DNA of 64,000 nucleotides from Eledone cirrhosa (Eukaryota). This document shows, piece by piece, positions 19,546 through 24,416 of this stretch. The position numbers and the translations under genes were made by a program. Position 1 is the stretch's first letter; every line of letters starts with the position of its first letter. The notes beneath the pieces are model-generated. The model saw only the letters and a list, made by a program, of their open reading frames with translations. It ran no database searches and was not told the origin of the DNA. The DNA lies in NCBI GenBank assembly GCA_964016885.1, contig OZ024743.1, positions 319,362,001 through 319,426,000 of the forward strand. The letters run 5' to 3'.

Positions 19546-19893
19546 TAGAAAGTGAGGTTTTTTTTTTACAAAATGAAAAATAACCGAGGTGTCCTACACG
19601 AGTGGAAGTATAAAGAAAAAGGGATGAAATCGAAAATGCAACTGAAGTCTTATTTTTTTTAAAAATATATATATTTATTTGGTTCCTTTACCGGTTTCGC
19701 AGTTCTTCTGCTTTTCAAAAGGTGAGTTGAGATGGAGGGTCTGTGGTTTAAAAAACCACAGACCCTCCATCTCAACTCACCTTTTGAAAAGCAGAAGAAC
19801 TGCGAAACCGGTAAAGGAACCAAATAAATATATATATTTTTAAAAAAAATAAGACTTCAGTTGCATTTTCGATTTCATCCCTTTTTCTTTATA
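19546..19893. mobile_element. Fold-back hammerhead element family F1, copy 1, in (TA)n
   Basis: ~141-bp near-perfect arms (19609-19749 and 19753-19893) plus a ~63-bp unpaired tail; hammerhead at 19780-19817 (+) and 19685-19722 (-). Confidence 0.85.
19780..19817 (+). ncRNA. Minimal hammerhead, U3-A8 core variant
   Basis: CCTT-TTGAAAA-GCAG aagaa CTGC-GAAA-CCGG-TA-AAGG. Confidence 0.7.
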
Positions 19894-21529
19894 TATATAT
19901 ATATATAGATATATATGTATAATGTATATATTTATATATATATATATATATATATATATATAAATGTATGTATATATATATATATATATATTAATAATGT
20001 ATATATATATATATATATATGTATAATGTATATATATATGGATAATGTATATATATATATATATATATATATATATGTGTGTATAATCTCTCTCTCTCTC
20101 TCTCTATATATATATATATATATATATATATATATATATATATATATATATATATATATATGTATAATATATATATATATATATATATATATATATATAT
20201 ATATATATATATATTATACATATATATATATACATTATACACACATATATATATACATGCGCGCACACTAACACAGTCACACATATCTATATCTTTCACA
20301 AAATATAAAATTGACATTTTATAATGTTTTTTGTCGGTGGAAGTTTTCGTCTCTTAATAATCTTTTTTAAATCTTTTAAATCTCTTTTCTTAATTTATTC
20401 TGAGTTATGTTTAAATCCCATTTTAGTGTGGAATGTGGTAATGAAATTATAAATATATTCAAACGTTTTATTTAAAGAAAATATACAATATAAATAAACA
20501 TACGTGTAAAGTTACAGTGAGACAAGCTAATTAATATTAATGTTTATTGAAGTGTTAATTAGTTTAAGTAAAAACAAATACTTCGTTTTTGTATTTGTTT
20601 TGTAAGATTCTTGATGTGAAATCATGTGTTGGAATAGATACAGTTGTGCTTTGGACGCGGCATGTTGCCACTAAAAACATACGCATCGGCTGGTGTTTTA
20701 AAACATTGAATCCATTCACAGAATAGTGAAATAATATTTGCATCATTGTTGTGGTTGAAGATAGTTATTCTCTGAAGCAGGGAATAGGATAGACCTCTGT
20801 CGCTTTCATAGATGAGTCTTCCAGTTGCTCGATCAATGGAACAGCATAATTATGAAATTAATGTGTACGTAGCTGAGCATTCAAAGACACGTGTGTCTTT
20901 ATCGTAATTCGCGGAGACATTTGCGTGACACCGTATGTGACATGGCTGGTTATTTGAACCACAAGTACAACCCATTCCACGGGTTTTCAAACAGTTTCCG
21001 TCAAACCAAATGTCAATCACATGGCTAATATCGACCCAATATTATGGTAAATGACCTTTGTCCAGGATCCCACCCAATAATATCGAACCCGAGATGTAAT
21101 GGTTGCCAAGCTATCTTCTTAACGTTCCTCAAGGCAACAAAGGAGCAAGCACATAAGATTAATTTTATAATTACCACAATTTCCTTTAAGCATAACTTAT
21201 TAGAATGTCTAACTTATTAGAAGCTATACGGAATTCTACTTTGCAATGAATATATATATCATGCATTCTTTTTGTGAAGAGCACCCAACATGACTACCCA
21301 AGTAATACTGCCACAGTGATGTGGGTGAGCTTTCTCCTGTGTGGTAGATCCCATTTGCAAGCCACATTGTCGACCCTGTGGACACGATGGAAAAAACGTT
21401 TCCACGGTGATGGCAAGGGAGGTGCGTTACAGCCATTCCAGCTCGCAGGACTCAATTTTGCGGGTGGCCAATTCCACTCAGATATTGATTGGGAAGGTGT
21501 TTAGTGGGGGAGGGGGAAAACGCCGGAAG

Positions 21530-21920
21530 TCTCCACTGCTACAGGCTTGACCGCACACCTATCCTCAGCCGAAATCGACTCAACAATTGATATTCACGTG
21601 GGTTTGTCGTTCATTGCCGTTGCCAAGTCCTGGATTTCAATACCAGAATCTCTGGAGATTACATCGGGATAGGAGAGCTTGCGCCCCCTGTTATTAGTGA
21701 CTGCTTATGGTTTCCAAAGCACTAGTGGGGACACAGCCTCAGAAGTGGCATGATGGCAGTAGCCAGCAAATCTTACTCTCATTTTACGTACAGCAACAGA
21801 TATGCGTGGGAGGCCGGCATATATTTCTTTCAAAGTCAGAGAGCGATCGATACCTCTACATTTTGCCCTCTTCGGCCTGACGACTAACGAAACCTGGGTT
21901 ACACGCACATTCCAGAAATA
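21530..21920 (-). pseudogene. RTE-like LINE 3' fragment
   Basis: EIYAGLPRIS...RVRFAGYCH...LVLWKP, then GRKLSYPDVISRD. Confidence 0.7.
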
Positions 21921-22314
21921 GAATATCTTTAATATGAAACACTTCAAAAGTTATATGAATGGAATGAATGTAGAAAAATATGGATATTAATTAGCACCAA
22001 AATCACTGAAAATTGCACAAAGAAATTATATATTATCACAAGATACTGTAAGTCACACACTGTTTTTGGAATGTATATTTTTGTTAAATATTGGCAAAAA
22101 ACAAACGAACAAAGAAAAAAGAACAAAAAGAAGACTGCTTGGTAAGCTGTATTATATTAAATGACATTCTAAAGTTTTATACATAAGTTGTCTGAGCCAA
22201 ACTGAGAGCAATCTGACATAATAAACAATACACATCTGTTGACCTATAGAAAAATGCAGAAATATCGAACATATGCTTAAAGATATAAAATACTGACATA
22301 AAAATACTATGGCA

Positions 22315-22620
22315 AAATGTGTGAAGGCGTCTGGTCTGAAGTGTTTGGCTCACGATCGTAAGTTCGTGATTTCGATTCTCAGTAGCGTCTTGCATCCTTA
22401 AACAAAACACTTTATTTCGCGTTGCTTGTTCGAGTCTACTCAGCTGAAAAACGCGAGTTATACCTGTAATTCAAATAGCCAGCCACCACGCACATTGTCA
22501 TGCTGAAGAGCCCCGGAAACTACGTTAGTAGTGGAAGGGCCTATGGTATTATCTGTCACTTTTACACTAATTTCATGAGCAGGCTGTTCGGTTGATCAAA
22601 CTGGACCGCTATTGGTAGGA
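22315..22620 (+). mobile_element. SINE family B
   Basis: ggctcacgatcgtaagttcgtgatttcgattc...aaaacactttatttcgcgttgct...cagctg. Confidence 0.7.
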
Positions 22621-22644
22621 ACCTAAGGAGGTCCAACACATGTT

Positions 22645-22800
22645 AAAATGTGGAAACTGCGTGGAAAAGTCAAATGTGGAAGTTGCCTATAAAAGTCAAA
22701 TGTGGAAGTTGCCTGTAAAAGTCAAATGTGGAAGTTGCCTGTAAAAGTCCAATGTGGAAATTACGTGTAAAAATCAAATCTGAAAGATACATGAAAAGGT
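22645..22800. repeat. ~27-bp minisatellite, about 5 copies
   Basis: aaaagtcaaatgtggaagttgcctgta repeated. Confidence 0.85.
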
Positions 22801-23385
22801 AGGGATATCTATATATAAGCGAAGTTAGATGAACAACATTTTCCGTCTATCGTGTTTATCTCCCGTAATTAGAGGTTTTTCTCATTTGATTTTAATATAA
22901 TATAATATATATACAATAGCATAATAGTTTATGGTAAAAAATATATAATTTAATAATTCCTTGATTACAATATTCTTTGTAAAGATGCTTGAATCTTTAA
23001 TTTTTCTTGATCTTTACTTTATTGTCACTTGGGCCATCGCTGTATTCATTTTACAGTCATTTAAATCAATTACAATAACTCTGATCCATATTTATTTTAA
23101 TCATTATCAAACATGTATCCACTAAAGTACGATGATTTTTGTTCTATCTGTATATCTATCTTTTAACTGCTGTGGAGATCTGGGATTTGTTCTTGTTATT
23201 GTTGCTCTTATCCGACGATAGATATATTGGTAAATATACATAAATAGATATCTATAGAATTACAGTCACACATACAGATATACTGGTAGACGGACACATA
23301 GGTAGAGACGTAGATAGGTAGATATATAGACAATTAAATAGAAGGTAAATATATATATATATATATATATATATATATATATATA

Positions 23386-23950
23386 CAGTGGCGTAGCTAG
23401 GGTAAACGGAGCCCAGGGCAAGCATCAAAATTGCCCCCCCCCCCTCTCCATCAAAAAGTCAAGATCTACAAAGACGAAATTGCGGTAGAATTTATTATAA
23501 AAAAACAAAAAACGGTTACAACTTGATTTTTCGGGCTTTTATTGAGGCAAACTGGTTGATAATTTCCTCGAAATCAGTTCGTTCAAACTCTTCGATTTCT
23601 ACACTCAAAAGAGCGAGGTCAGTCAGCCGTTGTTGGCCCATTGAGGTTCGCAAATACGAATGTATTAGCTTCAGCTTGCTGAACGACCTCTCGTAACTGG
23701 CAATTGAAATAGAAATCCTCAACATTATTTGAATACTGATTCGCAAATTGGGAAAAACACATTCATTGCCGTATTGTATCATGAATTGGAGAAGTGCCTC
23801 CGACTTTAAAATTGGGTCAGCTGTCCTAGTAGCCAGCAAAGATCGGCAGTCCAAGATTTGCTCATACAATTGCTCTCCGTCGATGTCGGAGTTGTATAGT
23901 TCCGCAATGTTATTATTAATATTCGAAAAACTCAGATTACATTTATTGTA
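23386..23950 (-). mobile_element. hAT DNA transposon 3' end (transposase dimerisation domain and terminal repeat)
   Basis: ORF 23516-23869 has FPNL...ERSFSKLKLIHSYLRTSMGQQRLTDLALLSVE; terminus CAGTGGCGTAGCTAGGG at 23386. Confidence 0.9.
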
Positions 23951-24051
23951 TTCAGCAATGTAGAGCGAAAGATGTTCCTTTTTTATTTATATATATATAA
24001 ATATATATATATATATATATATATATATATATATATATATATATATATATA

Positions 24052-24416
24052 TTAGAAAGTGAGGTTTTTTTTACAAAATGAAAAATAACCGAGGTGTCCT
24101 ACACGAGTGAAAGTATAAAGAAAAAGAGATGAAATCGAAAATGCAACTGGAGTCTTATTTTTTAAAAAAATATATATATTTATTTGGTTCCTTTACCGGT
24201 TTCGCAGTTCTTCTGCTTTTCAAAAGGTGAGTTGAGATGGAGGGTCTGTGGTTTTTCTCACATCTGATGTGAGAAAAACCACAGACCCTCCATCTCAACT
24301 CACCTTTTGAAAAGCAGAAGAACTGCGAAACCGGTAAAGGAACCAAATAAATATATATATTTAAAAAAAAAATAAGACTCCAGTTGCATTTTCGATTTCA
24401 TCTTTTTTTCTTTATA
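24052..24416. mobile_element. Fold-back hammerhead element family F1, copy 2, in (TA)n
   Basis: Same sequence as 19546-19893; ~151-bp arms around a 1-nt loop at 24265; hammerheads at 24303-24340 (+) and 24190-24227 (-). Confidence 0.85.

Follow-up and report, generated by a model that had tools for sequence, protein, structure and literature searches.

How can one mobile element leave palindromes that turn back at different points and carry the same unpaired tail on one side only? The question is raised by two fold-back repeats in a 64,000-nt stretch of the Eledone cirrhosa genome (contig OZ024743.1 of assembly GCA_964016885.1, positions 319,362,001 to 319,426,000 of the forward strand; hereafter the window). 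A first-pass annotation had read them, from the letters alone, as hairpins of a Penelope-like element (PLE), made anew at each insertion by snap-back or template switching. In our analysis the family assignment and a repeated origin of the hairpins stood, but simple snap-back did not. The hairpins are 5'-truncated copies of the 3' end of an abundant PLE lying in (TA)n, each of which was likely made at its own insertion, with both cleaved target strands priming on one RNA and the two complementary DNAs (cDNAs) being joined 3' end to 3' end.

Positions within the element are given on a ruler, one natural copy (the reverse complement of L002:610-1703), on which the outer tail end is numbered q1, the arm without a tail ends at q63 and the apex of copy 2 falls at q213-215. 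An inverted-repeat search gave arms of 141 nt in copy 1, 100% complementary with 3 nt between them, and of 151 nt in copy 2, 97% complementary with 1 nt between them (Table 1). The unpaired tail of 62-64 nt stands on the left only in both copies, which are 93-97% alike. The two hairpins had thus been described correctly, save that copy 1 starts at 19545, one base before the 19546 first given. As had also been noticed, their apices differ, by ~10 nt in each arm: copy 1 turns at unit positions 203/205, copy 2 at 215/213. The centre of copy 1 is AAA at 19750-19752 and its junction, GGTTT-AAA-AAACC, is among the rarer, shorter forms; the junction of copy 2, CACATC-T-GATGTG with its centre at 24265, belongs to the commonest class genome-wide. 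Because their haplotypes and junction classes differ, copies 1 and 2 are separate insertions. A third copy, reported to have no inversion, indeed proved to be an older solo copy with neither inverted partner nor tail, which extends beyond the usual 5' end or apex position into (TG)n. An 18-mer of the arm has five matches in the window against 0.01 expected, and a repeat arising by chance is excluded.

Table 1. Coordinates of the fold-backs, their target tracts and related features in the window
Feature	Position	Strand	Unit positions and remarks
Copy 1, (TA)n target tract, left	19463-19544		
Copy 1, tail (one-sided)	19545-19608	-	3'-most 64 nt of the element, sense on the window minus strand; q1-q62 on this side only
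Copy 1, tail-side arm	19609-19749	-	q63-q203; antisense on the plus strand
Copy 1, second arm	19753-19893	+	q205-q63; sense on the plus strand; ends at the proximal q63, straight into (TA)n
Copy 1, (TA)n target tract, right	19894-20255		
Copy 2, (TA)n target tract, left	23979-24051		
Copy 2, tail (one-sided)	24052-24113	-	q1-q62; matches the tail of copy 1
Copy 2, tail-side arm	24114-24264	-	q63-q213/214
Copy 2, second arm	24266-24416	+	q213-q63; sense on the plus strand
Copy 2, (TA)n target tract, right	24417-24452		
Older solo copy	43165-43293	-	q80-q221; 83% identity
Second-family fold-back	43786-44202		(TA)n on both sides
Second-family tail	~43786-43820		
Second-family arms	43821-44011 / 44012-44202		
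Hammerhead-like motif, sense arm of copy 2	24303-24340	+	CCUU-UUGAAAA-GCAG aagaa CUGC-GAAA-CCGG-UA/AAGG (slash, predicted cut); read by eye
Mirror motif, copy 2	24190-24227	-	read by eye
Mirror motif, copy 1	19780-19817	+	read by eye
Mirror motif, copy 1	19685-19722	-	read by eye

The parent element was recognized from longer copies elsewhere in the genome. When 10-kb stretches were compared, the loci L089, L092 and L093 had more than 3 kb in common, and homology to the unit continued past 1.1 kb. [quoted passage not shown] RVT_1 was matched with E 9e-7 in L089 and 5.5e-7 in L092, its score being 29.9 bits in L092:1641-3173:- (cut-off 29.6) and 29.2 bits, just below the cut-off, in L089. GIY-YIG (PF01541, cut-off 22.6 bits) was matched in L089 at residues 463-552 of 555 (E 3.5e-6, 27.7 bits) and in L092 at 417-505 of 510 (E 8e-7, 29.7 bits). 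The protein has a C-x4-C-x2-C linker, reading KCGRSNCGTC and matching the pattern CX2-5CxxC, and two cysteines between GIY and YIG; the PLE motif LYAIKCKGCNEDYIGQT was read by eye, in the form given in the accessible portions of PMC8557442. These domains, together with the fold-back and one-sided tail, which form a published PLE signature in the same portions, establish the family as Penelope-like, as the first-pass annotation had held. The ORF runs counter to the unit, on the other strand, and stops 1.2 kb before q1, this distance being 3' untranslated region (UTR); therefore q1 is the sense-strand 3' end and the window copies are 3'-terminal stubs. Nearly all sampled copies have (TA)n on both flanks, within which a target-site duplication is unreadable. 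Craig et al. (2021; PMC8557442, accessible portions) connect the CX2-5CxxC linker and the cysteines between GIY and YIG both with Neptune/Nematis-type PLEs and with the targeting of (TA)n; by its linker motif and (TA)n bias, the present element would be one of those two types. Long and short copies belong to the same subfamilies. A direct duplication of about 308 nt in the 3' UTR (q407-714) marks one long-copy subfamily (L011, L030, L056, L063, L081, L090-L093) and is absent from L002, L020, L041, L088 and L089. A non-coding element of ~1.1 kb, with L020 as its full copy (a 660-nt arm plus a centre), was rejected as the parent because homology runs on into the RT-endonuclease ORF.

The ends of the copies were tabulated in 84 pieces, namely the 3 window copies and 81 distinct loci of 3 kb taken around the first 100 matches on contig C1. 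Among the 123 arms that reach q195, the outer end is at q1 in 63, at q62/63 in 38 and elsewhere in 22. These two ends are combined in a strict manner. Of the 39 head-to-head junctions, 35 pair an arm starting at q1-3 with one beginning at or beyond q62 (exactly q63 in 26), and no junction pairs q1 with q1 or q63 with q63; the four exceptions are an arm truncated by the end of its locus, an old fragment and two partial-tail arms. The same rule was seen genome-wide. Since a similarity search with the 213-nt unit skips very common words, exact motifs were used for these counts, and the numbers of fold-backs are lower bounds because the motifs are exact and the gap ranges fixed. The 21-mer of the arm has 5,457 + 5,709 matches in the 3.0-Gb genome, with none for the reversed control, so that the family comprises at least 11,000 arms, and 1,667 fold-backs have a short apex. 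Of these 1,667, a tail is found on one arm only in 1,105 fold-backs (570 + 535), on both arms in 18 and on neither in 7. Mixed pairing thus amounts to 97.8%, against the ~50% expected under free assortment with tails on half of the arms.

In the same 123 arms, the inner end lies at q211-217 in 61, at q203-210 in 19, at q201 in one and further in in 42, of which 10 are alignment breaks at q714 due to the internal duplication; 80 arms thus end at q203-217, with a cluster at q211-215. Solo copies stop at the same q205-215, fused to (TA)n, often via an AT overlap. The apex is therefore variable, and the proposal of different inversion points was right insofar as the apex is not invariant across copies; the inversion points are nevertheless not free, the apex having a strong mode at the point where solo copies have their 5' end. 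Equal arms are also found away from this mode, with symmetric longer arms of ~173, 206 and 381 nt and rare apex positions at 234/238, 320/320 and ~479. In other fold-backs, the tail arm is longer than its partner (L013, 207/138; L024, 204/149; L040, 211/160; L048, 215/156) or shorter (L027, 83/398; L020, 664/1094; the second insertion in L092, 21/603). The last of these (L092:5139-6042) joins a 21-nt tail arm with a sense arm exceeding 600 nt and is separated by TATATA from the 5' end of a ~5-kb copy.

A second, related PLE family in the genome, with ~1,800 arms and 135 short-apex fold-backs, has in common with the main family a conserved block of ~70 nt. Its copy in the window has a tail of ~32 nt on the left only and arms of 191 nt that are 99% complementary and abut with 0 nt of spacer. 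In this copy and nine further loci, the arms end at position 1-4 or 33, and a tail end is paired with a no-tail end in 5/5 fold-backs. The inner ends lie at 220-226, ahead of ATCTG. The preferred 5' end is CCA/GATG in the main family, the slash marking the end, and the homologous AATCA/GATC or .../GATT in the second.

Purified protein of a Poseidon PLE, for which a dimer is predicted, both cleaves and extends the two target strands; its reverse transcription begins at two adjacent internal RNA sites, and the genomic tail is the RNA between them (Frangieh et al. 2024, PMC11167929). By analogy with this study, q1 and q63 may be two internal start sites of reverse transcription and the tail the RNA between them. 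Both cut target strands would then prime on one RNA, the enzyme starting at q63 on one strand running ahead and that starting at q1 on the other strand following along the same RNA. Both cDNAs would stop where the RNA ends on its 5' side, and for this reason the arms would be equal at whatever RNA length; an early stop of either enzyme would give unequal arms. Following a template jump or annealing over a short stretch, one cDNA could then serve as template for extending the other. The preferred apex at q214 might mark where a short transcript begins, at a conserved YCA/GAT motif in the 3'-terminal pseudo-long-terminal-repeat (pseudo-LTR) region, the predicted RNA 5' ends at q212-215 beginning with AGAUGUGAG. 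For copy 1, with its apex at q203-205, the RNA or cDNA would have been ~10 nt shorter. A promoter in the pseudo-LTR is mentioned in PMC11167929 and in the accessible portions of PMC8557442, in agreement with a transcript start at this place. The latter portions also describe PLE insertions as heavily 5'-truncated, with an inverted 5'-truncated copy, a one-sided tail of 30-40 bp and a (TA)n bias. As regards the origin of the two arms, partner arms have an identical haplotype at six single-nucleotide polymorphisms (SNPs) in 18 of 27 pairs, while shuffled pairs gave 5.4 +/- 1.9 with a maximum of 12, and none of 5,000 shuffles reached 18.

An intramolecular snap-back, in which the 3' end of the first-strand cDNA folds back and primes the second arm, is the next reading to be considered, but it seems unlikely as the general route. 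Most arms are equal, as it would predict. Some junctions also contain internal microhomology with a feasible loop; thus, the TCTCA end in L017 pairs ~20 nt upstream, and the junction class CACATCTG/AGAAAAACC permits a 4-nt loop. However, copying back through the tail should yield tail/tail ends, of which the genome has 18 against the 1,105 fold-backs with a single tail. Moreover, among the 50 fold-backs whose junctions were listed, 24 have a centre of only 0-2 nt (CACATC-N-GATGTG, CACATCTGTGAG and CACATGTGAG) and leave no more than this for a loop, and the second-family copy in the window leaves nothing. In L027, L020 and the second insertion in L092, the second arm holds sequence absent from the shorter tail arm. 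Given that snap-back predicts tail/tail ends, needs a loop and cannot lengthen the second arm beyond the first, it fits only a minority of junctions.

The recurrence of particular junctions might rather suggest that a few fold-back masters arose once and were then copied whole by retrotransposition of the hairpin transcript. Four junction classes indeed cover 30 of the 50 listed fold-backs: CACATC-T/A-GATGTG, the class of copy 2, in 11; CACATCTGTGAG in 8; CACATCTGAGAAAAACC in 6 and CACATGTGAG in 5, the last two each with one variant included. The outer-truncated second arms (q68-186, 9/35) could likewise be 5' truncations of a fold-back RNA. The commonest junction was found, however, in the haplotypes AGGAGT, AGAGGT, AAAGTA and GAAGTA, with either centre base relative to the tail; since it occurs in at least four haplotypes and with both centre bases, it must have arisen many times. 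Many junctions are unique. The other 20 of those listed are blunt, overlap by 1-5 nt or contain filler of up to ~14 nt; over all junctions, microhomology amounts to 0-5 nt, or a small number of filler bases is present. Solo copies stop where the fold-backs do, and subfamilies are common to long and short copies. A small set of masters is therefore rather improbable, and it is here that the claim of a hairpin made anew at each insertion is borne out, by the haplotypes of the commonest junction and by the many other junctions.

The palindromes could also have formed in DNA after insertion, through template switching during replication or break repair in unstable (TA)n, or through gene conversion. 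(TA)n tracts are fragile and form cruciforms, and the arms of copy 1 are 100% alike, against a difference of 3% between this copy and others. Arms identical to those of copy 1 were also sampled elsewhere, so that this likeness needs no conversion. A post-insertion origin leaves unexplained why q1 is so regularly paired with q63, why the apex clusters at solo 5' ends and why both rules recur in the second family; we consider it very improbable. Lastly, a DNA transposon of the miniature inverted-repeat transposable element (MITE) or Foldback type with internal deletions, or an assembly artefact, is hardly credible despite the inverted appearance of the repeats and the shortness of many copies, given that long copies are collinear with the RT-endonuclease ORF and themselves lack a terminal inverted repeat, that the fold-backs lack fixed symmetric terminal inverted repeats (one end at q1, the other at q63), with a varying centre, as the first-pass annotation had argued against a MITE, that solo copies are unpartnered and 5'-truncated, and that arms diverged to 97% in copy 2, ends following a rule, 1,667 sites and raw restriction-site-associated DNA (RAD) reads over the apex make an artefact unlikely. 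These reads, from two other individuals, gave depth over the apex bin (at least 97%) as a pile-up from thousands of copies.

Several points nevertheless weigh against the joint priming of both strands on one RNA. Twenty-five of the 1,130 counted fold-backs violate the pairing rule, and at least one of the six subfamily SNPs differs between partner arms in 9/27 pairs. The partner arm is the nearest relative in only 4/28 pairs, a count made uninformative by the star-like family and by noise in a block of T and A runs. This block, at ~q106-118, has a total of 12-13 nt in 67/86 arms, its internal boundary ranging between T3A9 and T10A3; partner arms disagree in this boundary in 15/21 pairs, for instance T6A7 at 24152-24164 against T10A3 at 24366-24378 in copy 2, so that a single-RNA template would need copying errors or later mutation. 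In vitro, PMC11167929 saw no difference in start site between strands, and strict pairing is not predicted from it. None of the five long loci inspected has a direct-repeat pseudo-LTR. Sampling was confined to the initial 30 Mb of a single contig, with sites picked by an exact 21-mer at q183-203, and shorter stubs are thus unseen in it. Finally, it is only by inference that an RNA begins at q214 and that a single RNA served both arms.

The 3' module might also contain a ribozyme. The first-pass annotation had proposed a hammerhead on both strands, which was not confirmed: Rfam models found no hammerhead in window positions 19400-24600 at gathering score or E<=10, nor in L020 at E<=10, nor in the 10-kb long copies L089, L092 and L093 at E<=1. 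The motif read by eye (Table 1) is hammerhead-like with a non-canonical core, having UUGAAAA instead of CUGANGA, so that U replaces C at position 3 and A replaces G at position 8; from its sequence, U3 and A8 could still pair. It has a helix II (GCAG/CUGC), GAAA and A-CCGG-U, that is, a 1-bp helix III with a palindromic loop. The accessible portions of Cervera and de la Pena (2014, PMC4209133) describe such a helix III, helix II and GAAA in metazoan type-I motifs. The motif is present on both strands because each arm bears one copy, and its site lies 80 nt upstream of q63. In the second family the block is kept, with a helix II of GCAU/AUGC and with GCAA for GAAA. The hammerhead-like block is thus a conserved 3' module and a putative ribozyme. 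The 242-nt 3' region folds no better than its shuffles (z = 0.69), and no special structure was found in it that would account for the boundary at q214. In L001:1283-1560, a solo copy ends at q144, just after ACCGGT and beside the predicted hammerhead-like cut, with unrelated unique DNA beyond; as a single case followed by such DNA, this end was not accepted as evidence of cleavage.

Other features of the window were noted. An ORF fragment between the two fold-backs (23516-23986, minus strand) matches the hAT C-terminal dimerisation domain (PF05699, E 9.6e-9), with no evident link to them. Two tandem arrays lie at 10901-11645 (36-nt unit x20.7, 95% matches) and 13276-13742 (135-nt unit x3.5, 96%), and the open frames that cross them are repeat artefacts. 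The perfect hairpins at 19713-19789 and 24216-24315 score up to 66 bits against microRNA-precursor models of Rfam. A microRNA identity (mir-548, mir-4679 or other families) was rejected, the scores being below gathering and merely reflecting a perfect hairpin.

The kind of element is already known, and it is found here in an unusually clean form. In common with Neptune/Nematis-type PLEs, it has a single ORF with RT and C-terminal GIY-YIG, the C-x4-C-x2-C linker and the two cysteines between GIY and YIG, as well as the 5' truncation, inverted truncated copy, one-sided tail and (TA)n of the accessible portions of PMC8557442. It differs from them by its tail of 62 nt, against a published 30-40 bp (~32 nt in the second family), and in that no direct pseudo-LTR was seen in the five long loci. 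Those portions also call canonical hammerheads universal in C-terminal-endonuclease PLEs, whereas Rfam found none here. The Poseidon PLE of Anolis carolinensis (PMC11167929) is similar in its two adjacent RT start sites with the tail between them, in the cleavage and extension of both strands, in its AT-rich target and in a hammerhead lying ~85-92 nt upstream of the start sites, a distance close to that of the hammerhead-like site here. It belongs to another clade, Penelope/Poseidon lacking the linker motif, and, in contrast to the ~98% one-of-each pairing of the present fold-backs, PMC11167929 reports neither strand preference nor joined two-arm products.

Further comparisons can be made outside these types. 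MITEs and Foldback transposons are likewise short, abundant and hairpin-forming, but the present copies have asymmetric ends, an unfixed centre, unpartnered solo forms and a retroelement parent. In L1 twin priming, a single RNA is copied from primers on both target strands and the cDNAs are joined mid-way, giving an inverted 5' part; the second primer anneals inside the RNA, so that the two parts cover different stretches and no palindrome results. Here, both arms span the same stretch from neighbouring 3' start sites. In its accessible portions, a preprint (bioRxiv 10.64898/2026.07.22.740005) states that in most PLE insertions 5' truncation leaves just one terminal repeat and describes animal non-LTR retrozymes, which are also non-coding pieces derived from a PLE terminal repeat. 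These form head-to-tail tandem arrays with active hammerheads, in contrast to the dispersed head-to-head pairs without a canonical hammerhead found here.

PLE integration, with its tandem or inverted copies and one-sided tail, is presented as an open question in PMC11167929 and in the accessible portions of PMC8557442. The present family offers more than 1,000 minimal insertions that hold the 3' module only, in which the junction, the start site and the 5' end can be read directly. The pairing of a distal with a proximal start site in ~98% of cases is a quantitative constraint from in vivo insertions and the frequency of near-loopless palindromes is another; concerted priming on two strands meets both, and simple snap-back does not. 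For annotation, the hairpins mimic microRNA precursors in Rfam-type scans as well as MITEs, and should be masked as PLE stubs, those of the type seen at 19713-19789 and 24216-24315 being a likely source of false microRNA calls in the Eledone cirrhosa genome. More tentatively, and with somewhat less than even confidence, we suggest that every integration by a PLE of this kind may be two-sided by design: a dimer on one RNA would nick both strands and begin a cDNA on each, its two protomers taking one start site apiece, the head-to-head pair would be the default product and the solo copy a failed half, and the centre of the palindrome would mark the 5' end of a ~214-nt transcript starting from YCA/GAT. 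If this is true, the thousand-plus stubs would be a natural record of transcript starts, of start-site choice and of cDNA-to-cDNA joining.

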